Source: a virus
Lineage: Duplodnaviria; Heunggongvirae; Uroviricota; Caudoviricetes
IMG/VR virus record: IMGVR_UViG_2909278081_000001
Reading direction: 5' to 3' (one strand)
Length of the DNA: 50,428 bases
Both the position numbers and the translations under genes were made by a program. This document shows, piece after piece, positions 2,198 to 45,476 of the stretch. Within the stretch, counting starts at the first letter, position 1, and each line of letters starts with the position of its first letter. A model generated the notes under the pieces. It did not search any database. It had not been told where the DNA came from and was given only the letters and a program-made list of their open reading frames with translations.

Positions 2198-5100
2198 TTA
2201 TCTCGTAAAGCTAGTTTTATGACTTCCTGTTAGCTGACTGTCTTCATAATAAAATGCTCCACTAAACTCCTGTCGACCATAATGATGACTTGATGTGAGT
2301 GAGCCCCCTATAACGCCCTTTTCACCTAATAATGTCCAAACGATTTCAAAACCATTGTCCCTTAACATTGTTAAAAATGGTTCTTTTTTAACAAGTAGAT
2401 GCGGCTTTGAAGCATATACAGCTTCAGCTGCAAAGCAAACCATAGTTCCATTTTCATCATTGAAGCTACCCTCTACTTCCCCACTTTTTAATCCCATCTT
2501 TTCAAAGATTAAGTTACTAGGCTTCAAAAAATTCAAAGTTTCTATTTTTGATTTGTCGAACTCCTCTTCCCACAAATAATTAATCGAAGTGACACTAACA
2601 TCAGCAATCTTAGCTCCAGACTCCCGGTCTGTTACCGAAGTCCAGTCAGATCCACCATAATAATCTGATTTAAAAGACTTAAATGCTTCGGACCAATAGT
2701 ACTCCCTATTAAATAATTGGTATCTATCAGTACATTCCGGCATCCACCTGCCCATAAAGTCTTGAGCTATTGCCCAATCTCTAAAATTTTCAAATTCTTC
2801 AACTTTAACGATATAACTTCTGATCTGATACCAAACCTCTTTTCGTGGGTGCCCCCAATCATCGTTTCCAATAATTTTTGGTTCTTTCCATGATGGATAA
2901 CTTTCTAATACTATCCATTCATCACCATTATCATCTTTAACTTCAATAAAAGCATATGAATTAGTTATAGTAGTAGAACTTTTAACCCAGTCTTCATTAG
3001 AGCAAGTCCAATCAAACACTTCATCATTAAGCCACCACATTTCTTTATTGCTTATTTTTTTCGTTCCAGTTTCTTTAAGTAAGATAGTGGGATCTATATC
3101 TCTTACGTAAGGCTCCCATGGCCCTTGGTATGGATTTTCCTTTCGTTCGTCACCATAACCTTCAAAACGAGTAAAATTATCGGCTAGCCTTGCCATGTAT
3201 TCATAATAAGCAATCCATTGGTATTTTTTACCAATCCGTTCTTGGAATGCCTCTCTACGTCCACGTCCAGTTCCTATTTGTTGGTCAAAATTACCATGCT
3301 TCTCCGGATCCCAACCAAGCTCTATAACACGATTGAATATAAATTGTTGAGCTAGTCGAAGATCAAAGTGTTTATCAGTTTCCAGCAGATTATTATTATG
3401 ATCCAGGTATGGCTCTATTTCATTTTCAAACTCACTTAACAGATCGTATGACAATGAATTCTTAAATAATTTCTTGCTCGCCTTTATTTCTTCCTGTGCT
3501 TTTCTACCGACCACACGACCAAATTTAATTCCTTCGCATTTATCATCATAAATGAAAGGATCTGTGGCATCATGCAAATCTTTTTGTTGATCAGTTAGTT
3601 TACATTTGAAAGTTTTAAAAACTTGCTTACGGTCAACAGGGGTTTCATTAAACTTGCAACCAGACCAATCAGAATGATTATAATTTGTTCCAATAGTATA
3701 TCGTGAAAAGTCACCACCTTCCATAATCGAGCTCCAGAGTTCCCGATAAGGTTCTTTATCATAAAGGGACTCTAGTTCCTCTTTTGAAGGAATCTTGTCA
3801 GGCCAAATGCTGTTGTAGGGTGGTCTAGTCTTGGATAATTCAATGCTTTCAAGTTCCAATCCAAGATGATTAGCAAATTCAATAATCTCTCTAGCATAAT
3901 CTCTAAGTAATATATTTGGATACACATACTCAGAACAAAATACCTTTTGGTAAACAGTTTCGGCTAAATATTTTAGTTCTTTAATATTATCAGTTCGCAA
4001 TGTACAGCCTAATGCAACTGCAAATATTCTTTCCCAAACGTAAGGATCATTTACACCATAAAACTTATCAATTATTTTTCTCAATACAGGAATTCTTGGC
4101 TCGAGTAAACTCACTAAAGCCTTGGTTGAGCAATCTCGAAGTTCTCGGTTACTAGAAGTTAAAAACCAGCATAAACTAGTTGCAACTAGCTCGATTGACT
4201 CATCCGAAACGAAGCTTTTGTCTGTTCTGCCCCATGCCCAATCGATTAGATGCCTAAATGCTGAGTCTTCACTATATTTATATTTAAGTTTTGTAGTCCA
4301 AAACGAATCTCGATTTGCCAAAGGGTAATCTTTTAGCCAATCATGCAAGAAATTAGCATTAAAGGGATGGTCAACTAAACCTGAAATAGAGATCACTGCC
4401 TCGAGGAAATGATCAAAACTATCTTTAAATTTAAAAACATGTTCATTGATGAAAGGTCTGATTTTTTCGAAATCAATAGCCTTAATATCTCGCCATATCA
4501 AGCTATCAATAAAGGCTTCTAGTAATTTATGATTATTGCTGAACTCCGGCAGAAGTTCATAAAGCTCTTTTCCATACTTTTCTGGCAATTGAATAGACAG
4601 CGCCTCTACTATTCCCGGGTTTATATAAAAGTCACATTCATCATGAAAATATTTTTTCAGACGACCATCTGACTTAAATTCACTTTCGATATTTTCAACA
4701 TCATTTAATAAAAAATTAACAGTTAAATGATCATCAAACCTTTCAAAAGCCACATGAACTACTTCCTCAGTAGAATTATCATCATTTCTCACTATGCCTT
4801 TAGTCAATAATCCTTCGTCAATCAAGGCGCTGAGGAAGGTTTTATCAGCAACATAATCATTAACTACAGATTGAACCACTGAGTGAGCATCTCTAAGTGA
4901 AATACTATTACGACCAATCTCTAATTTGAATTTTATGATTTCATTGAGAGCATCTTTAACAAGAGGAAAACTGGGATCGAATGCATATTTTCTTGGCGAT
5001 GCTAATGATTTATTTACCCCTTCCACTAAAAAGTTAAAAATATTTGAAATCCCATTAAATCCAACAGGCACTTTGGTTAAACCATTTTTCTTAATGCCTT

Positions 5101-6652
5101 CACACAATAACTTAAGAAATAGAGGGTTTTTAAACTCTGGATTAAGGTTAGGTGATGAAGGCCTCTCTATATTGTAATAATCATAAAATAGACTAACCGC
5201 TTCCAACTCAACGTTCTGAAATCCAATATGTTCATGAATTTCAAAATTATTTCGCTCAACATTCTCATGTGAAATTGTTACATTTCTATATGTTGTTCTG
5301 ACTGACATTATCAGACCAAGCCATTCAAAGCCTCTGATTTCATCGACAAAACTGTTAATATTGTCATTCCAGAATTTATTTCCATTACCTTCATTAATAG
5401 CATCAATAAAAACTAAGACTCTTTTTCCTGTTTTTTTGCCATATAAATTCAGTTTTTCTAGGAATTCACGAGAAGTGATTTTAAGCTGTAATCTCTTGAA
5501 GATTTGTGACCATGGAGATTCATCTGAAGTAAGTTGTTGCCCTAGTATGAGTAGAGAAGGATACCCAGAAGCAATTCGATTTTTAATCACATCAGCCAGT
5601 AAATGAGACTTACCAATTCCAGCTTTTCCTTCGAGAAGTAAGAATGGGTTGTTAGCCAACTTCACTGTTGTTGAATTAATGAATGCACGTAATTCATTGC
5701 ACGCATAGTCAAGTTCCCGAAGCATTCGCAGAGTAGATGAATAATTATCACTGTAATGCTTGGTTTCACCTACTTGTTCTGACTTTTCTCGGAGTTCCCA
5801 CAATATTGATTCCGCTCCGCCAATAGCTGTCTGGCAGCTAGAAACATAGTTATTAAATTTATTTATAGGGACTTCATCTAATTTAGAAAAATTAATTTCT
5901 TGATATATATCAGAAATTTCTTTTAAGGACTGGTCTATTTCAGATAATTGTGAGGAAATTACATCGCAACTATGTAATTTCTTTCCAGTGACCAGAAAAC
6001 TATCTATATGCGAATAAAATATTTTAGAAAAATTATTAGTTCTACCGAGACCATCAAATATCTCTGCTATTTCTAGCTTTACGTTGAGTTCGGGTGTGTA
6101 TCGGCCTCCCAAGTCAGCTATTGCTTGACTACTTTTCTCATTTAACCAATCATCACTCAAGTGAAAAGTTAGTTTCTCATCTATAGACCGCAAAACAAGT
6201 TTAATTTGAATAAGCTCTTCATTAATATCGAATATTTTTTCTTTATAAGTTTCTTCGATATGTAGCTTTTTTAACTTCGAACAATTATTTATTTTTAACG
6301 ACAACATCCCATAAAAAAGGCTGAGTTGTTGTTGAGTTGGGGGAGTGACGCTTGGATATTCTTTGAACTTGTCTAATAACATCTCTTTGTCAGGGAACTC
6401 TTTAAAAAGGATGTGCTCATTCAACATCTCAAACAATGGTTTAGAATGATAAAATGGAATTGCTCCACTTTCTACTGGATATGTTTCTTCAAACTCAATT
6501 GCCGTCTCTTCAATTAGTTGATATAATCTATCCACATATTTTTCTGTGGGGAATAATGCTTTCTTAATCCAACTATATCCTTCTTGAGAAATGAATTGAT
6601 CAATAAGTTTAGTTGCTACATAAGTTGCCACTGTAATTGATATGGGTTCCAT
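2198..6652 (-). CDS. large P-loop NTPase, STAND/NACHT-like (1484 aa); candidate anti-phage defence protein
   Basis: Single uninterrupted 4.4-kb ORF, visibly AT-rich. Walker A LLEGKAGIGKSHLLADV about 330 aa from the N-terminus, Walker B-like RVLVFIDAINEG, long Trp-rich C-terminal region. Family assignment is inferred from motifs only. Confidence 0.6.
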   Translation of the reverse strand: MEPISITVATYVATKLIDQFISQEGYSWIKKALFPTEKYVDRLYQLIEETAIEFEETYPVESGAIPFYHSKPLFEMLNEHILFKEFPDKEMLLDKFKEYPSVTPPTQQQLSLFYGMLSLKINNCSKLKKLHIEETYKEKIFDINEELIQIKLVLRSIDEKLTFHLSDDWLNEKSSQAIADLGGRYTPELNVKLEIAEIFDGLGRTNNFSKIFYSHIDSFLVTGKKLHSCDVISSQLSEIDQSLKEISDIYQEINFSKLDEVPINKFNNYVSSCQTAIGGAESILWELREKSEQVGETKHYSDNYSSTLRMLRELDYACNELRAFINSTTVKLANNPFLLLEGKAGIGKSHLLADVIKNRIASGYPSLLILGQQLTSDESPWSQIFKRLQLKITSREFLEKLNLYGKKTGKRVLVFIDAINEGNGNKFWNDNINSFVDEIRGFEWLGLIMSVRTTYRNVTISHENVERNNFEIHEHIGFQNVELEAVSLFYDYYNIERPSSPNLNPEFKNPLFLKLLCEGIKKNGLTKVPVGFNGISNIFNFLVEGVNKSLASPRKYAFDPSFPLVKDALNEIIKFKLEIGRNSISLRDAHSVVQSVVNDYVADKTFLSALIDEGLLTKGIVRNDDNSTEEVVHVAFERFDDHLTVNFLLNDVENIESEFKSDGRLKKYFHDECDFYINPGIVEALSIQLPEKYGKELYELLPEFSNNHKLLEAFIDSLIWRDIKAIDFEKIRPFINEHVFKFKDSFDHFLEAVISISGLVDHPFNANFLHDWLKDYPLANRDSFWTTKLKYKYSEDSAFRHLIDWAWGRTDKSFVSDESIELVATSLCWFLTSSNRELRDCSTKALVSLLEPRIPVLRKIIDKFYGVNDPYVWERIFAVALGCTLRTDNIKELKYLAETVYQKVFCSEYVYPNILLRDYAREIIEFANHLGLELESIELSKTRPPYNSIWPDKIPSKEELESLYDKEPYRELWSSIMEGGDFSRYTIGTNYNHSDWSGCKFNETPVDRKQVFKTFKCKLTDQQKDLHDATDPFIYDDKCEGIKFGRVVGRKAQEEIKASKKLFKNSLSYDLLSEFENEIEPYLDHNNNLLETDKHFDLRLAQQFIFNRVIELGWDPEKHGNFDQQIGTGRGRREAFQERIGKKYQWIAYYEYMARLADNFTRFEGYGDERKENPYQGPWEPYVRDIDPTILLKETGTKKISNKEMWWLNDEVFDWTCSNEDWVKSSTTITNSYAFIEVKDDNGDEWIVLESYPSWKEPKIIGNDDWGHPRKEVWYQIRSYIVKVEEFENFRDWAIAQDFMGRWMPECTDRYQLFNREYYWSEAFKSFKSDYYGGSDWTSVTDRESGAKIADVSVTSINYLWEEEFDKSKIETLNFLKPSNLIFEKMGLKSGEVEGSFNDENGTMVCFAAEAVYASKPHLLVKKEPFLTMLRDNGFEIVWTLLGEKGVIGGSLTSSHHYGRQEFSGAFYYEDSQLTGSHKTSFTR

Positions 6653-35779: not shown

Positions 35780-36823
35780 ATGAAAATTAACAAGATATTA
35801 TCATCTGCAACACTATTGTATGGTATGTCAATGGCCATGTCGGTCGGGAGTTGTGCAACACCTGTCCAGACTAATCTTCCTGGTTACACCCCGGGTGCAG
35901 ATATCATTAGTGTTTCACCCACCAGAAACCAGGTCGATCTCATTGGTGATGTTGTTTATTCCCAGATAAAAGGAACTCGTTCTGTCAGACAGCTTCACAT
36001 GTCAGTTCTTGTCCCGCGAACAAATGATTTAAAACCAGCCATTATTTATTATCCCGGCGGCGGATTCATGTCTTCTGAACATGACAAATTTATTGAAATG
36101 AGAATGGCTCTGGCTGAAGCTGGTTTTGTTGTGGCCGCTGTAGAATACAGAACAATTCCTGATACATTTCCAGCACCAGTTGAGGATGGGAAAGCTGCAA
36201 TACGTTACTTGAGAGAACATGCCAGCGATTATGGGATTGATCCTCAAAGAATCGGAGTTCTGGGTGACTCTGCCGGTGGATGGCTTGCCCAGATGATGGG
36301 AACTACAAATGGTGACAAAACCTTTAATAAAGGTGACTTTCTTCAGCAATCAGCAGATGTTCAGGCTGTTGCCACACTTTATGGGATTTCTGACTTGTTG
36401 AATATTGGCGAGGGGTTCCCTGAATCAGTGCAGGAGGTTCATCGATCTCCTGCCGTAACCGAAGCCTTAATGATCAATGGCCCTGCATTCAGAAGTTTTG
36501 CGGGAGCCCCCATAACAGCGTCAAAAGAAAAAGCGCTAAACGCCAGTCCAATCGGACATATGAAAGGAGTAAAACCCCCATTTCTTATTATGCATGGTAG
36601 CAAAGACACTCTGGTTTCACCTGAGCAAAGCGCCAAACTATTCAGGATGTTGAAGAAGAACGGCGATAACGCTGAGTACGTTCTGGTAGAAGGGGCTGAG
36701 CATGGCGATAATACATGGTATCAGCCAATTATTATAAACAGAGTTGTTGAGTGGTTTACTAAAAACCTGGGAACCCCCATAAAAACCGCTACCCAACAAC
36801 AAAAAACAAACGCTGACCTGTAA
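35780..36823 (+). CDS. lipoprotein alpha/beta-hydrolase (esterase/lipase family), cargo gene
   Basis: Signal peptide with lipobox (SVGSC), oxyanion-hole YYPGGGF, nucleophile elbow GDSAGG, C-terminal GAEHGD; only plus-strand gene in the minus-strand early-right operon. Confidence 0.8.
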   Translation: MKINKILSSATLLYGMSMAMSVGSCATPVQTNLPGYTPGADIISVSPTRNQVDLIGDVVYSQIKGTRSVRQLHMSVLVPRTNDLKPAIIYYPGGGFMSSEHDKFIEMRMALAEAGFVVAAVEYRTIPDTFPAPVEDGKAAIRYLREHASDYGIDPQRIGVLGDSAGGWLAQMMGTTNGDKTFNKGDFLQQSADVQAVATLYGISDLLNIGEGFPESVQEVHRSPAVTEALMINGPAFRSFAGAPITASKEKALNASPIGHMKGVKPPFLIMHGSKDTLVSPEQSAKLFRMLKKNGDNAEYVLVEGAEHGDNTWYQPIIINRVVEWFTKNLGTPIKTATQQQKTNADL

Positions 36824-36826
36824 AAA

Positions 36827-36847
36827 GCAGCCCGCACTTATGCGGGC
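36827..36847. terminator. hairpin between convergent esterase and ybcK genes (possibly bidirectional)
   Basis: gcagcccgca-ctta-tgcgggc; T-rich flank on the minus-strand side. Confidence 0.45.
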
Positions 36848-37172
36848 CAACCTATTTCACTCGATTCAAAAGAAATTATTTTTAATGGGGGCGTGACCAG
36901 CCTCTCGGTGCTCAGATACTTAATGAAGTGGAGTGGCATTCAGGCAAGAGGTTAACATCACCTGTTCGCCATAACCAAGCACGTGCACAAAGTTTGTTAT
37001 CAGTGAATTGTTTTGTGATTGGGTATTGTTGAGCTACTAGAGCAAGAATGCCAACATCCAGTGGCAGTGCCTATAGTAAAACTATAGCTCAGGGCGCTTC
37101 GTTCAAGATAGTTAATATCATATTAGTTACTTTACTTTCATACCATAGCACGGTTGAAAAAGTGATTATTAC

Positions 37173-38699
37173 TCAAAAATAAATCTCACCATCAACCATA
37201 TATTTAAGAGTACTTATCACCTGCTGGGCGGATATTACTTTCATTAAAGGATAGTGTTTAAAAACAATGCCATTCATAAAATAGATATCACAGGTTTTAT
37301 TATCTGTATTAATTATAATTTTTTCGAATATTTTATAGGCAAGTGTACGACATAGCTCTCGCCCATTTTTACTGGTTAAATCAATAGCATGAAAATCACC
37401 AAGTGAACTCACCCCTTTACTCTTCAAAGTTTTTAATGATACCGAAGCCCTTCGTAATTCCTTATCTAATAGTCTTATTTTCTCTGCTATAGCGGTAACT
37501 TCAGGCGCGACAGACAATGCAACGATTAAATTATTAATTTTCATCTGAAGCTCAATAATTTTTAACTCTAAAGTTTCATTAGCATCTTTCTTGTTTTCAA
37601 CTGGTTGAATTTTGCTACAATTAAAAAGCAATTCATTAATGATATTATAATCAACCAAATCTCTTTTTATTGATGGTCTGTCACATCGATGTAATCTTCT
37701 CATCGGACAAACATAATAGCCATGCAAACTTCCAGATACCGCATGAACAATCATGGTATTACCACAAGCCTCACACTTCATAACTGTTCGAAGTAGATTT
37801 ATTAGCATAGGATTCTTGCTACTATTGCTAATACCAAAAGGTGCCAACCGAATTTCCTGTACAGCGTAAAACAAATCATCTGATATGACTCTGGGATAAT
37901 AGCCAGCGATTTCACTTATCCCTTTCCCTCTTGCACGATATGAAGGTACGCATATACCTATCAGAGCTTTATTCGCTAATAATTTTTCAATTACAGAAGG
38001 TCCCCATGCACTTTCTTTTCCTGAGAAATTCTTTACAGCATGATCATTTAAATACTTGGCTATTGCATTCAATGAGCGCCTTTCCATCCTGAGTTTAAAA
38101 ATTAGCTCAATAGTTTTCACCCTGTCGGGGTCTGGAACAAAAGCCGTTCTTTTGTCATCCAATGAGAGCCATCTCGGACAAGAAGCCGTCATAATCGTGC
38201 CTGACTCCAGTGCATCCTGCCGTTTTTTCTTCCATGATAATTTAACCCGACTTGACTTTATCTCGCTTTCTTCATTTGCCCTTTGTGCTATAAGTATGGC
38301 TTTTATTAATGAATATGGCTCATTCAATGAGTCAATATTATAGACTGTATTATCGCAAAGAGTTATAACATCAATACCGTGATTCAAAATCAATTTCAGA
38401 CGCTCAATCGCTTCACCGACTTTTTCTCTTGAAAGTCTGTCCAGACTTTCAACTAACAATGTAGTCCCTGGCAATATATAACCATGTTCTATAGCATCTA
38501 AAAATTCCGAAAAAGCTCCTGATTGTGCATGCTTTCCATTGAATGCGCTTAACCCCAAATCTTCATACGTTACGGTATCAAGGTAATAATCACTATTTAC
38601 CTTTAGCCATTCAGTAATAAGCCTTCTCTGGCGGTTTAATGAATCACCAGACATCTGACCTGGTGATGAAAATCGCATATATGCTATGGCTTTTTTCAT
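37173..38699 (-). CDS. ybcK: large serine recombinase (YbcK-like)
   Basis: 508 aa; N-terminal resolvase-type fold (…AYMRFSS…), C-terminal recombinase and Cys-rich segments (CEACG...CPMRRLHRC); AT-rich. Confidence 0.8.
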   Translation of the reverse strand: MKKAIAYMRFSSPGQMSGDSLNRQRRLITEWLKVNSDYYLDTVTYEDLGLSAFNGKHAQSGAFSEFLDAIEHGYILPGTTLLVESLDRLSREKVGEAIERLKLILNHGIDVITLCDNTVYNIDSLNEPYSLIKAILIAQRANEESEIKSSRVKLSWKKKRQDALESGTIMTASCPRWLSLDDKRTAFVPDPDRVKTIELIFKLRMERRSLNAIAKYLNDHAVKNFSGKESAWGPSVIEKLLANKALIGICVPSYRARGKGISEIAGYYPRVISDDLFYAVQEIRLAPFGISNSSKNPMLINLLRTVMKCEACGNTMIVHAVSGSLHGYYVCPMRRLHRCDRPSIKRDLVDYNIINELLFNCSKIQPVENKKDANETLELKIIELQMKINNLIVALSVAPEVTAIAEKIRLLDKELRRASVSLKTLKSKGVSSLGDFHAIDLTSKNGRELCRTLAYKIFEKIIINTDNKTCDIYFMNGIVFKHYPLMKVISAQQVISTLKYMVDGEIYF

Positions 38700-38954
38700 G
38701 GTGACACCTGCTAAAGTATGCTTTTATAAACCTTAGTGGTGAGATATGATTTTTGTTTAATTTTTATTTAAAAAGACAATTAAGGTCACATTATCTTGAA
38801 TATACAACAATAATCGTATTGCAATTTTCTTACACCATAATCTTGAAAGCACAAAAGAATGAATAAAAACTAAAGACATTAACAAAAAGCATAAAACGAG
38901 GCCCATATAAATATACGAGCCTCCATATTTTAGTCGTTTAAAAACAAATTATTT

Positions 38955-39287
38955 TTAATGTGGTGTGCTTCGTGACAATAAATTAATAACCAACACACCG
39001 GCACAAATCAACATCATGCCTATAATGGCTGGCAGGTCCAACCGTTGGCCGAAAAATCCCCATGATAGTAAGCTAATCAGGACAATACCGACTCCTGACC
39101 AGATAGCATAAGCAATCCCTGTAGGAATATAAGCCAGCGTCTGAGCTAATAACCAGAATGATGCACAATAACAAATAATTGTACCAACAGATGGCCATAA
39201 CCGTGTAAAACCTTCTGAAAACTTCATTAAGGTTGTACCAATGACCTCTGCAAGTATTGCACCACCAAGATAAATATAAGGATTCAT
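38955..39287 (-). CDS. emrE: small multidrug resistance efflux protein EmrE
   Basis: From Met19 of the supplied ORF: MNPYIYLGGAILAEVIGTTLMKFSEGF... 110 aa, matches E. coli EmrE. Confidence 0.9.
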   Translation of the reverse strand: MNPYIYLGGAILAEVIGTTLMKFSEGFTRLWPSVGTIICYCASFWLLAQTLAYIPTGIAYAIWSGVGIVLISLLSWGFFGQRLDLPAIIGMMLICAGVLVINLLSRSTPH

Positions 39288-39354
39288 AGCATATTCTTTC
39301 CTGTTCAAACTGGAGAGAATTGTACTACAGTTTGAACTCAACTCACCTGTTTCA

Positions 39355-39657
39355 TCATTGTGTACCCATTGATGTTCTTTTATATACCCTCAATACCCGT
39401 TTCATCGCGGCACTCTGGCGACACTCCTTAAAAATCAAATTCGTGCTCACCTTTCCTTCCCATTCTTCTCTGGTAGCGAACCGATAATACACCGTTCGCC
39501 AGACCTTACCATCAACGACCAGGATTCCTGCCCGCGCCATTTTAGCCGCAGCCTGATTTATGCTGGTTACGGTTGCGCCTGTTACCGCGGCAACGTCCTG
39601 CGCACAGAAGTTCTTATGAGTCCCCAGGTAATGAATAATTGCCTCTTTGCCCGTCAT
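39355..39657 (-). CDS. ren: Ren (protects against Rex exclusion in lambda)
   Basis: MTGKEAIIHYLGTH...VTGATVTSINQAAAKMARAG, lambda Ren-like. Confidence 0.85.
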   Translation of the reverse strand: MTGKEAIIHYLGTHKNFCAQDVAAVTGATVTSINQAAAKMARAGILVVDGKVWRTVYYRFATREEWEGKVSTNLIFKECRQSAAMKRVLRVYKRTSMGTQ

Positions 39658-42239: not shown

Positions 42240-42268
42240 TTGACCATCAATACGCAAGCGTATAAATT
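42240..42268 (+). promoter_or_regulatory. pRM-like promoter for cI (probably leaderless transcript)
   Basis: TTGACC, 17-nt spacer, TAAATT, ending 7 nt before the cI ATG at 42276. Confidence 0.5.
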
Positions 42269-42275
42269 AAAACTT

Positions 42276-42968
42276 ATGAAAAAAGAAACTCTTGCTGATC
42301 GCTTAAACCTAGCGATGGAACAATCTGGAATGTCTCAAGGCGCTCTTGCAAAGGCGTCTGGCGTAGCTCAACCCACAATCTGGAGACTGACAAGCGGCAA
42401 CGCACGCGGCTCAACAAAAATTGTTGAAATAGCTAATGCATTGGGTGTTCGAACAGAGTGGCTCTCATCAGGCATAGGCCCGATGAGAAATGACGGTCAA
42501 CAATCAGGGAAGCCTGCTGTCAACCATTCCAAATACTTCAAGATTGACGTTCTTGATATAGAAGTCAGTGCTGGGCCGGGTGTCATCAACCGTGAGTTTG
42601 TAGAAGTCCTACGCTCGGTTGAGTACTCGTTTGACGATGCTCGTCACATGTTCGATGGCAGGAAGGCAGAAAATATCCGCATCATTAACGTACGCGGTGA
42701 CAGCATGTCAGGAACGATCGAACCAGGTGATCTTCTGTTCGTTGATATCACTGTTAAATCTTTCGACGGTGATGGTATCTATGCGTTTCTGTACGACGAC
42801 ACAGCCCATGTAAAGCGCCTGCAAATGATGAAGGATAAGCTGCTGGTTATCTCTGATAACAAGAGCTACTCACCGTGGGACCCGATCGAAAAAGACGAAA
42901 TGAATCGGGTATTTATATTTGGGAAAGTTATTGGGAGCATGCCACAGACATATAGAAAACATGGGTAG
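42276..42968 (+). CDS. cI: cI-type repressor (HTH plus LexA-like S24 peptidase domain)
   Basis: Start set at MKKETLADRLNLAMEQSGMSQGALAKASGVAQPTIWRL (HTH); C-terminal GDSM and HVKRL motifs of S24 autopeptidases. Confidence 0.85.
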   Translation: MKKETLADRLNLAMEQSGMSQGALAKASGVAQPTIWRLTSGNARGSTKIVEIANALGVRTEWLSSGIGPMRNDGQQSGKPAVNHSKYFKIDVLDIEVSAGPGVINREFVEVLRSVEYSFDDARHMFDGRKAENIRIINVRGDSMSGTIEPGDLLFVDITVKSFDGDGIYAFLYDDTAHVKRLQMMKDKLLVISDNKSYSPWDPIEKDEMNRVFIFGKVIGSMPQTYRKHG

Positions 42969-43074
42969 ATTATTAATGACAGATTTCATCAAGATAACCA
43001 GATGATGTTTTGGTGAGACATGCTGACATCCTCATAATTTATAGAATGGATGTTTCAAGCAGAGCTTAAGGTAT

Positions 43075-44682
43075 ATGGATATGTCAAAAAAAAATTTTGA
43101 ATTCAAAAATTACCCAATAGTCTTTATTGGCTCAGGCATTTCAAAAAGATATTTAGAGAACTACCCAACGTGGGAAGAGCTATTAAACGAGTATTGGAAA
43201 ATAACAAATCCCACAAATGATTTCTATAGTTATCTTTTAACAATAAAAGAATCACATAAAAATAACAGTGATAATGATATCGATCATAAGATTTATACAG
43301 AGGCAGCAAGTAAAATTGAAAATGATTACAATCTATTGTTTAGGACTGGCAAATTAAAATTAAATGGACTAGATGCCAAGAGGGTTTTTAGTGAAGATAT
43401 TTCACCATTTAAATACGCCATATGCCAAAGATTTTCTAATAACACAATCAGAAAGGATGTAAATCTTGATGAATTAGCATCATTTAAAACATTAATAAAA
43501 AAGGCCAAGATAATCATCACTACAAATTATGATGCTTTCATAGAAAATTTACTTCAAGAGCAAAATGTAACTCCAAAACTCTATATTGGAAATAATGGTT
43601 TCTTCGAAGATACTATTGGATGGAGTGAGTTATACAAAATCCATGGTGATATAAAGGATCCACACTCAATAATCATAAATAAAGATGATTACGAAAAATA
43701 TGACAACAAATCTATACTCATTAGTGCCAAGATACTATCTAACATGATTAAAAATCCAATAGTTTTTCTTGGATATTCTTTAACTGACAGGAATGTAAAG
43801 AAACTTCTTTCTGATTTTTCCTCACAACTACCTAGAGAAGATGGTCGAAAATCAGCTGAAAGAATAATTTTGATTGAATATAAAGAGAATGAACAAGAAG
43901 TAGTACCAAAACAGATTACCGATCAACAGCTACAAATTACATATACATCTGTTAAAACAGATAACTATAAACAGATCTATGATGAGATCAGTGCTGTTGA
44001 TGAAGGGCTCTCACCTTATGATGTTTTAAGGTATCAAAGAGCCATTAAAACACTTATCATTAATGAGGGTGAAAAAGGGCACTTAGATACTCTATTGGTT
44101 TCACCTTCTGACTTAGACAGACTTGAAGAAAGTGTTAAACAAGGAAAAAATTTAGTTGTTGCTCTAGGCGATAAAAAGTATGTATTCACACAAGTTAAAG
44201 AAATAAATTATCTTGAAGACTACTTATTTAATAAAAATGAAATATCTAATAAATTAGCCATAGATTTCATATTAGGTTCAGTAAACTCATTACAACTTCC
44301 ATTTTCAAAAACTATAACCTCATGTAATTTGAAAGAGTTAAGTTTGCCAGCTAAATATGTGTTAAAACTAAATCAACGCATTGAACGCCACGGAAAACTA
44401 GACGACTTGCTCAATAAAATCACCTTAGATAAAATCAATGCAAATAAAATTTACACCAACATCAAAGATATAAAGGATGCAACGTTCAAAAAGTACAAAG
44501 AATTGTCTATAGTCATTAAGAACATAAAAAATATCCCCAAAGAGGAGATTGAAGATTATGTTAAAAAAGAAGCGTTTGTTCAATTCAAGGCATGCGACGT
44601 TGACAATTTAAAAACCCAGTATAGGAAACTATTTCTTGCCTACGACTTGTTGATTCATGGAAATGTTGAAAAGATAAATTAA
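43075..44682 (+). CDS. SIR2-domain protein (ThsA-like SIR2 plus unknown C-terminal domain), candidate defence gene
   Basis: 535 aa, AT-rich; motifs IVFIGSGISKRY, ITTNYD, KIHGD, VFLGYSLTD in the order typical of defence-type SIR2 domains; directly downstream of cI. Confidence 0.7.
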   Translation: MDMSKKNFEFKNYPIVFIGSGISKRYLENYPTWEELLNEYWKITNPTNDFYSYLLTIKESHKNNSDNDIDHKIYTEAASKIENDYNLLFRTGKLKLNGLDAKRVFSEDISPFKYAICQRFSNNTIRKDVNLDELASFKTLIKKAKIIITTNYDAFIENLLQEQNVTPKLYIGNNGFFEDTIGWSELYKIHGDIKDPHSIIINKDDYEKYDNKSILISAKILSNMIKNPIVFLGYSLTDRNVKKLLSDFSSQLPREDGRKSAERIILIEYKENEQEVVPKQITDQQLQITYTSVKTDNYKQIYDEISAVDEGLSPYDVLRYQRAIKTLIINEGEKGHLDTLLVSPSDLDRLEESVKQGKNLVVALGDKKYVFTQVKEINYLEDYLFNKNEISNKLAIDFILGSVNSLQLPFSKTITSCNLKELSLPAKYVLKLNQRIERHGKLDDLLNKITLDKINANKIYTNIKDIKDATFKKYKELSIVIKNIKNIPKEEIEDYVKKEAFVQFKACDVDNLKTQYRKLFLAYDLLIHGNVEKIN

Positions 44683-44687
44683 ATAAA

Positions 44688-44713
44688 CGCCCCGTACAAA
44701 GCGATGGCGGGGC
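44688..44713 (+). terminator. weak hairpin after the SIR2 gene
   Basis: gccccg with 13-nt loop then cggggc; no strong T-tract. Confidence 0.3.
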
Positions 44714-44963
44714 TAATAAGTCATTTATGTATCATTTAGCAACTGACTAAAAAAATACACATAAGAACTCAGACTACCAATATTCGATTAAATTTGCTGC
44801 CAACCTACCGAGCTCACCACAACCCGATGCCCCTCTGTCACGAGGCACATTAAAGCTGTACAAATTTCAGCCACACCAATAAGTCTTCATACTCTTTTTT
44901 ATAAAAATTCATTTAATTATCAATCAGAACAAGTATATCAAACATTATCAATACTAATTGCTA

Positions 44964-44992
44964 TTGACTACACCAATAGCCATTGCTATTGT
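44964..44992 (+). promoter_or_regulatory. pL-like promoter with operator motifs
   Basis: TTGACT, 17-nt spacer, TATTGT; TTGCTATTG/CAATAGC motifs at 44958..45004 shared with the cro/cI intergenic region. Confidence 0.45.
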
Positions 44993-45185
44993 CATGCTAT
45001 TGCATCGATGTTGGTATCACAAAATTTATAACTTCACCGTTGCGATGACCGCTTAGATCCGCAGCTTGAATTTCAGCAGGCTCCGGGGAGTGCGAGGGGT
45101 GAAGCGGACGCGTGAACGTCGGTGTGACCAGCTGAAATCAACTCAACACTTCATACCTCAGTCGCTTCAACGAGGCGACTTAGTT

Positions 45186-45476
45186 ATGACAACCGGCGGC
45201 CATCCACCGCTTGAATACGCGCAGAAGTCTCTATATGTTCAGCAGCCCAGCTTACGGGCAGGAGTTTTTATGGTTCATCAACATTACGGAACGCAGACCG
45301 TTAATCGAGGTGCGGTCATGCCAGGAATGCTGGTCAAACACAAAGATGGTACCTGGACTGCATCAGCTAATTTACGCGGACGGCTTTATCTGCATCGCGG
45401 CATCGAGCGCACTTATACCCGTGATTTGCTCGTGGAAGTTTTTCTCGACGGACGCGGTAACGGCCTGAATCGCTAA
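45186..45476 (+). CDS. hypothetical protein at the kil position upstream of gam (start uncertain, possibly upstream GTG)
   Basis: First ATG at 45186; upstream in-frame extension encodes an Arg-rich segment (KRTRERR); ends just before gam. Confidence 0.45.

Follow-up and report, generated by a model that had tools for sequence, protein, structure and literature searches.

The question raised by the locus described here is what a single long, AT-rich gene does directly behind the repressor gene of a lambdoid prophage. The locus belongs to the IMG/VR virus record IMGVR_UViG_2909278081_000001, the whole stretch of which (50,428 nucleotides, hereafter the window) was analysed. The element is a complete lambdoid prophage of Escherichia coli at the icd (e14) attachment site, and the gene, located at 43075-44682 on the plus strand, encodes a SIR2 family protein of 535 amino acid residues, corresponding to PDC-S25 of PADLOC. 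The reading preferred here, to which a probability of about 60% may be given, is that of a stand-alone abortive-infection module that would deplete nicotinamide adenine dinucleotide (NAD+) and would be expressed in the lysogen, joining the logic of DSR2 to the position occupied by rexAB in phage lambda.

As proposed, the SIR2 gene would be transcribed together with the repressor gene cI from the promoter pRM by read-through, so that the protein would be made in the lysogen. Its SIR2 effector domain would be kept inactive until a cue of infection, in all probability a protein of the superinfecting phage, is sensed by a helical C-terminal domain, and the collapse of NAD+ through SIR2 hydrolysis would then abort the infection. 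The effector role is ascribed to the SIR2 domain because of its homology to characterized NADases and its fully conserved pocket. A defence phenotype and a trigger of this kind are what we infer, the former being supported by two observations on the family, i.e. the nomination of PDC-S25 from BREX, DISARM or restriction-modification (RM) loci and the presence of a member from Enterococcus faecalis beside restriction genes.

Gene and family assignment

Concerning the gene itself, the ORF (open reading frame) list agrees with what a first-pass annotation of this DNA had described, namely an AT-rich frame of 535 residues directly after cI and on the same strand. The guanine-plus-cytosine (GC) content amounts to 0.27-0.33 over 43000-44800, i.e. 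~30% for the gene, as against ~0.50 in both flanks. An open frame of 1.6 kb in DNA of 30% GC, together with the 382 homologs scored for the protein, is far beyond chance. The spacing of an AAGG ribosome-binding site favours the second ATG at 43081 over that at 43075; the former is also the RefSeq start, yielding a protein of 533 residues (WP_000038831.1, "SIR2 family protein") that is annotated in E. coli strain N3 and is 100% identical to that of the window.

As judged from its sequence, the protein is a member of both the Pfam family SIR2_2 and the PADLOC candidate family PDC-S25. The model PDLC04967 of the latter was matched with E=2e-235, residues 1-528 aligning with positions 1-526 of 528, and a second PDC-S25 model, PDLC04968, with E=4e-84. 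The full length of the protein is also covered by phrog_2695 ("unknown function"), and no family of NCBIfam matches it. According to the PADLOC authors, the PDCs are 145 untested candidates nominated from the occurrence of a member within a BREX, DISARM or type I RM locus; PDC-S25 is thus a computational nomination only, and knowing the family adds no mechanism. The interpretation given in the first-pass annotation is supported as far as computation reaches, with the qualification that the family had already been catalogued as an untested candidate. In the searchable literature, PDC-S25 occurs only as a call in a survey of O157:H7 strains, and no mention of WP_000038831.1 was found there. A Sir2 homologue is mentioned among validated systems by Vassallo 2022; an identity with that system was rejected, no PD-T4, PD-T7 or PD-lambda model of PADLOC matching the protein.

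The SIR2 domain and its catalytic pocket

The N-terminal part, residues 1-306 (43075-43992, plus strand), was delimited from Pfam, from sequence and fold matches in the PDB, from the AlphaFold model and from conservation, and is, by sequence and model, a defence-type SIR2 domain. Pfam SIR2_2 (PF13289) covers residues 146-285 with 84.2 bits (cut-off 24.5) and E=1.2e-23, no other Pfam family being matched. All four motifs of the defence-type set recognized in the first-pass annotation are present, i.e. IVFIGSGISKRY at residues 15-26, ITTNYD at 148-153, KIHGD at 188-192 and VFLGYSLTD at 230-238; they comprise the glycine loop G19-S20-G21, the pocket N151-Y152-D153...H190 and the GYSLxD motif at 233-238. 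In an alignment of 46 family members ranging from Enterobacterales to Firmicutes and sharing 40-75% identity with the query, the residues G19, S20, G21, N151, Y152 and D153 as well as the GYSLxD motif are invariant (46/46), 45 of the 46 sequences also having H190. The AlphaFold model built from the same alignment has a mean predicted local distance difference test score (pLDDT) of 84.5, with residues 1-306 modelled as an alpha/beta fold, mostly at pLDDT >85.

The comparison with known SIR2 folds that had been suggested for the N-terminal part gave matches to ThsA, DSR2 and KomC by sequence and fold alike. The closest PDB match of the single protein by sequence is ThsA (6LHX, E=3e-12), and with the family profile further matches were obtained to DSR2, KomC, SIR2-HerA-type and other defence SIR2 proteins in the PDB, all of them restricted to the SIR2 core. 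With Foldseek, BcThsA, DSR2, SeThsA and KomC were all retrieved from the PDB with probability 1.00; the template modelling scores (TM-scores) of ~0.6 against isolated SIR2 chains mean that only the N-terminal domain superposes. In the alignment to ThsA, N151 corresponds to N112 and H190 to H152, so that the Asn and His that had been pointed out as those expected for NAD+ hydrolysis hold their places. The ThsA substitutions N112A and H152A abolish NAD+ cleavage, and N112A also abolishes the Thoeris defence (PMC7272460); DSR2 needs the same N-Y-D...H pocket (PMC11263360). Hydrolysis of NAD+ by the SIR2 domain is therefore the chemistry to be presumed from these alignments. It should be noted, that the division into N-terminal ~250 and C-terminal ~280 residues, as originally drawn, stands as to the SIR2 identity and not as to the sizes, the SIR2 domain reaching to ~306 and leaving a C-terminal part of ~230 residues.

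Members of the SIR2 superfamily can also be deacylases or ADP-ribosyltransferases (PMC9503650, PMC13064643), and the protein might thus act on a protein or nucleic acid of phage or host, by ADP-ribosylation or deacylation, excluding phages with no bulk loss of NAD+. All these chemistries make use of one N...H pocket, and the helical C-terminal domain could bind a substrate; the closest characterized relatives, however, are all NAD+ hydrolases, and features of canonical sirtuins are missing. The canonical SIR2 family of Pfam (the CobB/Sir2 deacylases) was not matched at E<=0.1, the Cys4 zinc module is absent, and the only three Cys residues (117, 417 and 507) lie outside the invariant or nearly invariant columns. 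Such a modification of targets is accordingly considered rather unlikely. An identity as a canonical sirtuin deacylase was rejected on account of the lacking zinc module and the lacking Pfam match.

The C-terminal helical domain

The second part of the protein, residues 308-535 (43996-44679, plus strand), is a family-specific, all-alpha domain and the presumed sensor or regulatory part. Residues 314-528 are wholly helical in the AlphaFold model, their likeness to known structures being limited to generic HEAT/ARM solenoids. A separate model of residues 308-535 has a mean pLDDT of 79.8, exceeding 90 from model residue 70 on. With this C-terminal model, nothing below E=0.68 was found in the viral structure library BFVD, and the C-terminal sequence profile run against the PDB sequences gave E=0.11 at best and no match to DSR2. 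Since no specific match emerged from any of these structure and sequence searches, the domain is neither SLOG nor Macro and has no specific known relative. The first-pass annotation, which had recognized nothing in this part, was thus in accord with the searches of Pfam, PDB profiles, folds and BFVD; the SLOG or Macro fold for which it had recommended looking did not appear, the domain being helical throughout.

A profile search of the C-terminal domain among 1.84 billion cluster representatives yielded 108 proteins. The full-length matches carry the domain at ~300-535 of proteins of 515-545 residues, and those weak or short matches that were examined proved either to contain SIR2_2 or to be fragments lacking the N-terminal part. 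A reuse of the domain with other effectors was therefore rejected, all 108 proteins being the same SIR2 fusion or its fragments, and the domain is specific to the SIR2 architecture. A lone match fused to DegT was also discarded, since it looks like an artefact of gene calling or assembly.

Concerning the conservation along the protein, the mean column entropy is 1.42 in the SIR2 part, 1.54 in residues 307-410 and 2.13 in residues 411-535. The last 125 residues are thus the most variable, as expected of a recognition surface. The best-conserved motif of the C-terminal domain, GKN(L/I)VVALGDKK at residues 358-369 (44146-44181, plus strand), has V361, A363 and G365 invariant and sits, in both models, in the sole internal segment with pLDDT <50; it might be a strand serving oligomerisation or pairing with a trigger protein. 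Taken together, the analogy to DSR2, the exclusive fusion to SIR2 and the pattern of variability suggest a sensor role for the C-terminal domain, above all for its last 125 residues.

One may go a step further and suppose that the helical domain of ~230 residues is an undescribed compact phage-sensing module, that the whole protein is a half-size counterpart of DSR2 responding to another cue, and that the repeated placement directly behind non-orthologous repressors, in Proteobacteria as well as Firmicutes, is a part of the mechanism. This extension is put forward only tentatively, its chance being clearly lower than that of the stand-alone NAD+-depleting module as such. If it were true, the repressor-coupled expression would arm the NADase only in the dormant prophage and stop new synthesis on induction, and such coupling could settle self-immunity without a dedicated antidote.

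Absence of a partner gene and comparison with known systems

Ten loci from six genera were used to compare the neighbourhoods of homologs. The ten neighbourhoods have no gene in common, and neither a TIR, HerA or Argonaute gene nor any other partner is conserved in them, which is in keeping with PDC-S25 being a single-gene family lacking an obligatory neighbour; nor are any TIR, HerA or Argonaute genes present in the whole window. The lack of an adjacent partner, including one of the STAND type, had been stated in the first-pass annotation and is confirmed by these neighbourhoods; the statement needs to be qualified in that a STAND protein, Avs2, is encoded ~37 kb away in the same prophage. 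This Avs2 (AVAST type 2, ~1484 residues according to RefSeq) lies at ~2198-6652 on the minus strand, just inward of the partial icd copy on the side of the attachment site, the coordinates having been mapped from strain N3. Being placed at the opposite end of the prophage, it makes the element one that is armed at both ends.

The best analogy for the probable working of the protein is DSR2 of Bacillus subtilis, which is likewise a single polypeptide and has no partner gene; its N-terminal SIR2 NADase shows the N-Y-D...H pocket described above and precedes a region made up of helices only. The helical region of DSR2, a protein of ~1000 residues, binds the phage tail tube protein, using a cavity formed by HEAT repeats and a C-terminal domain (PMC11263360). 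In contrast, the protein studied here has 535 residues and lacks such a cavity, and the similarity is confined to profile positions 146-246. An identity with DSR2 was therefore rejected, the protein having half its length and no similarity beyond the SIR2 core.

ThsA possesses the closest SIR2 domain by pairwise sequence and is also a top fold match, with the catalytic Asn and His aligned. Its C-terminal SLOG domain binds a signal made by a TIR protein, and it is encoded beside thsB (PMC7272460). This likeness would allow a Thoeris-like effector, in which SIR2 is switched on by a small molecule, e.g. a cyclic ADP-ribose isomer, supplied by a TIR or another generator encoded in the host, and the ThsA models of PADLOC do match the SIR2 core with E=1e-21. 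They span, however, nothing but that core (positions 106-218 of a 478-position model), the C-terminal domain here is all-alpha and not a signal-binding alpha/beta SLOG fold, and neither the window nor the homolog contexts contain a TIR gene. Moreover, a host-encoded partner is unlikely for a gene moving among heteroimmune prophages of different phyla. A Thoeris-like effector is for these reasons regarded as very improbable, and the designation "ThsA-like", used at first, can be retained for the SIR2 core and not for the rest; without a SLOG domain and a ThsB partner, the protein is not a component of ThsA/Thoeris.

Two further groups of systems were considered. SIR2-HerA and SIR2-APAZ/pAgo (SPARSA) were rejected, the window and the homolog contexts encoding neither HerA nor a short Argonaute; the Aga_SIR2 models of PADLOC gave only weak matches to the SIR2 core (E=3e-4). 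Both the Pfam and the PADLOC libraries contain a model of AbiH, and none was among the matches of the protein in Pfam (E<=0.1) or PADLOC (E<=1). AbiH of Lactococcus is a single-gene abortive-infection protein on a mobile element, predicted to be sirtuin-like and possibly NAD+-depleting, its mechanism being untested (PMC13064643).

Position behind the repressor and transcription signals

The gene order in this part of the window is the lambda map read in reverse, with the ORF occupying the position of rexAB. The gene at 42276-42968 (plus strand; 230 residues by its RefSeq start and annotation) is called a cI-type repressor because of its Pfam domains HTH_3 and Peptidase_S24. The divergent gene beside it encodes a Cro/YdaS-type HTH protein and is followed by YdaT, O and P, and the plus strand downstream of the SIR2 gene and of the left operator and promoter (OL/pL) carries kil, gam, bet (RecT family) and exo. 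A pRM-like promoter, TTGACC-17-TAAATT at 42240-42268 (plus strand), recognized in a promoter scan as a consensus match only, ends 7 nt before the cI ATG, and the cI transcript would therefore be nearly leaderless.

Between the repressor and the SIR2 gene there is a spacer of 112 bp (42969-43080, plus strand) with no promoter of >=9/12, a sequence fitting a read-through from cI. The consensus scan detected no terminator-like site in it, and its RNA fold is no better than that of shuffled sequence (z=+0.31), both results being in line with the earlier impression that no convincing terminator separates cI from the ORF. A GC-rich hairpin at 44689-44713 (plus strand), 7 nt past the stop codon, folds with -18.6 kcal/mol (z=-2.8) and may terminate the cI-SIR2 transcript, even if its U-tract is weak and the consensus terminator scan flags only the minus strand. 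The read-through from pRM is proposed on three grounds: the lack of a terminator in the spacer, the hairpin after the gene and the nearly abutting repressor-SIR2 pairs in Streptococcus phages described below.

The segment 44960-45000 (plus strand), with a palindromic operator and extra half-sites overlapping a promoter, is read as OL/pL on the basis of the promoter scan, the sequence and a hexamer count. It contains a pL-like promoter TTGACT-17-TATTGT with an extended -10 (44964-44992) and a perfect 21-bp palindrome GCTATTG-N7-CAATAGC (44960-44980), with further half-sites nearby; the hexamer of the palindrome has its densest cluster of the window at 44960-45000 and two copies in the right operator (OR), i.e. 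the cI/cro intergenic region. The gene map thus bears out that the ORF lies before a pL-like promoter, in the slot of lambda rexA/rexB, and the gene falls into the rexAB-type class (between cI and OL/pL, on the strand of cI and with no intervening terminator), a class of position, not of homology. In the 590 bp between the SIR2 stop codon and kil, no known RNA element was found in Rfam. As to the stretch from pL to kil (44993-45270), it holds no gene for an N-like antiterminator, just a leader of ~275 nt with no Rfam match; a Q antiterminator for the late genes is present in the prophage.

In lambda, rexAB is organized beside cI and forms a two-protein system of a sensor and a membrane ion channel. 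BstA of the Salmonella phage BTP1 is reportedly a repressor-linked prophage exclusion gene encoding a DNA-binding protein. The likeness of the SIR2 gene to both consists in an accessory gene located beside the repressor and outside the lytic operons, with expected expression in the lysogen and expected abortion of other phages. There is, on the other hand, no sequence or domain relationship, the product here being one cytoplasmic SIR2 enzyme.

Several points weigh against the stand-alone NAD+-depleting module. The sequence by itself does not decide between NADase, ADP-ribosyltransferase and deacylase activity, and residues 335-370 of the C-terminal domain are poorly modelled. The presumed co-transcription with cI is based on the missing predicted terminator, and a candidate weak private promoter, an 8/12 match noticed by eye, is present in the gap. 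The prophage would also have to avoid triggering its own SIR2 protein during induction. Finally, no functional study of the PDC-S25 family or of a single-gene prophage SIR2 was found, only strain surveys, reviews and work on other SIR2 systems.

Distribution in E. coli and the variable slot

The SIR2 gene was found in 166 of 5426 complete E. coli genomes, always on the chromosome and always >=99.5% identical, the carriers including many O157:H7 strains. The matching cI allele (>=99%) occurs in 165 records and was never seen in E. coli without the SIR2 gene, so that the two are strictly linked in this species. These counts also bear on the possibility that the gene is a decaying, non-functional remnant acquired horizontally, i.e. 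AT-rich foreign DNA silenced by H-NS. A gene of ~30% GC in a 50%-GC genome, some of whose homologs are broken (the one of phage IPP23 is split into two ORFs), could be seen in this way; its frame is, however, intact and nearly invariant in the 166 genomes, which come from diverse sources, and family members from Enterobacterales to Firmicutes have kept the catalytic residues as well as the architecture over its full length. A remnant of this kind is hence extremely unlikely.

In 834 other genomes, a related C-terminal half of cI is separated from the same kil region by only ~275 bp. One such genome loses its homology to the window exactly at the cI stop codon (42968) and regains it at 45033 in the pL leader; the heterologous segment of 2064 bp (42969-45032) is represented there, in a related SIR2-less prophage, by 357 bp. 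No isogenic empty site came to light: what the 834 "empty-slot" genomes have in common with the window is confined to the kil side and to cI in its C-terminal half. These SIR2-less prophages are heteroimmune, and the border is thus that of a mosaic. In a related prophage of E. coli strain DAM (L011, 2130-2510), the slot between cI and pL/kil is occupied by a gene for a 126-residue 'BamE' (a SmpA/OmlA-type lipoprotein). The slot is a position of variable cargo. The BamE-like protein may be an exclusion lipoprotein.

Genomic contexts of the homologs

Among enterobacterial homologs, the SIR2 gene of Kosakonia occupies the same slot behind the repressor in a Rac-like RecE/RecT prophage, and in Morganella it stands between an S24 repressor and the early-left genes of a prophage equipped with a helicase/primase replication module, in both genera on the strand of the repressor. 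The repressor of the window (42276-42968) was compared with those of Kosakonia and Morganella (L013, 5151-5843, and L006, 4985-5692): the repressors are 45% and 44% identical to the cI of the window, the SIR2 proteins 75% and 63%, respectively. In the Streptococcus phages SVep1 and IPP23, the SIR2 gene is located 30 and 14 bp, respectively, behind a cI-like repressor gene, on the same strand and ahead of the integrase gene, the repressor of Streptococcus being essentially unrelated to the cI of the window. Since the repressors diverge more than the SIR2 proteins, the placement behind a repressor is recurrent and not simply inherited with one immunity module. The IPP23 copy (L004, 5007-6598), split as mentioned above, looks decayed. 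In Javan227, the SIR2 gene comes two genes after the repressor within a repressor-integrase module.

The Listeria monocytogenes prophage (L015, 3154-4113) has its SIR2 gene in a lysogeny module, beside a recombinase and together with a lipoprotein gene belonging to Pfam Lipoprotein_Ltp. One member of the Ltp family serves a Streptococcus thermophilus phage in superinfection exclusion; in the Listeria module, two exclusion-type genes would thus be stacked together. The remaining contexts are different. In the Lactococcus phage BK5-T, the SIR2 gene lies between the lysin and integrase genes and has its own annotated promoter and terminators; in Bacillus velezensis it comes after a lysin gene, and in E. 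faecalis it stands beside restriction and methylase genes. The BK5-T homolog, ORF30 (L005, 3965-5575), is full length and aligns to the query over residues 13-412 only, which fits a fast divergence of the last ~125 residues. A megablast search of DNA from phage records gave no match, the phage homologs detected by tblastn being 27-44% identical.

These contexts have to be set against the view that the gene is a moron unrelated to defence, by which SIR2 would tune the NAD+ or acylation physiology of the host or stabilise lysogeny, e.g. through addiction or maintenance. Accessory genes next to a repressor do not always serve defence, and the BamE-like lipoprotein in the same slot of another strain is in favour of that view. 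The domain belongs, however, to the defence-type SIR2_2 group and not to the housekeeping sirtuins, the family was nominated from restriction/BREX loci and is seen beside RM genes, and it shares its modules with exclusion-type genes, i.e. Ltp in Listeria and Avs2 in the same prophage. A non-defence role is accordingly judged improbable, and the abortive-infection module remains the preferred reading.

Significance

To a specialist, a SIR2 module at this place is expected rather than surprising: its effector chemistry, its one-protein design (as in DSR2) and the exclusion slot beside a repressor (rexAB, BstA) all have established precedents, and it is the presumed C-terminal sensor domain that is new. 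The proposal is plausible and testable, and its main value lies in a compact and tractable test case, the carrier being a genetically tractable E. coli prophage present in ~3% of the complete genomes of the species. If active, the protein would be among the smallest self-contained SIR2 immune proteins and would offer a simple system for learning how a SIR2 NADase is held in check and then turned on by a sensor domain of an unfamiliar type. It would also let one ask how a prophage avoids being killed by its own abortive-infection gene, and would add one more predictor of the failure of phage therapy or phage typing in carrier strains.

Other features of the prophage

At the right end of the window, the integrase gene (ending at ~50428) abuts icd; on the other side, a partial icd pseudogene at ~1534-1701 is followed by iraM, ymgL and ycgX. 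The nin/replication side carries cargo of its own at ~35780-39287, consisting of genes for an alpha/beta hydrolase (plus strand), a ybcK-type serine recombinase (minus strand) and emrE (minus strand). The GC content dips to ~0.40 near 39000-39400.

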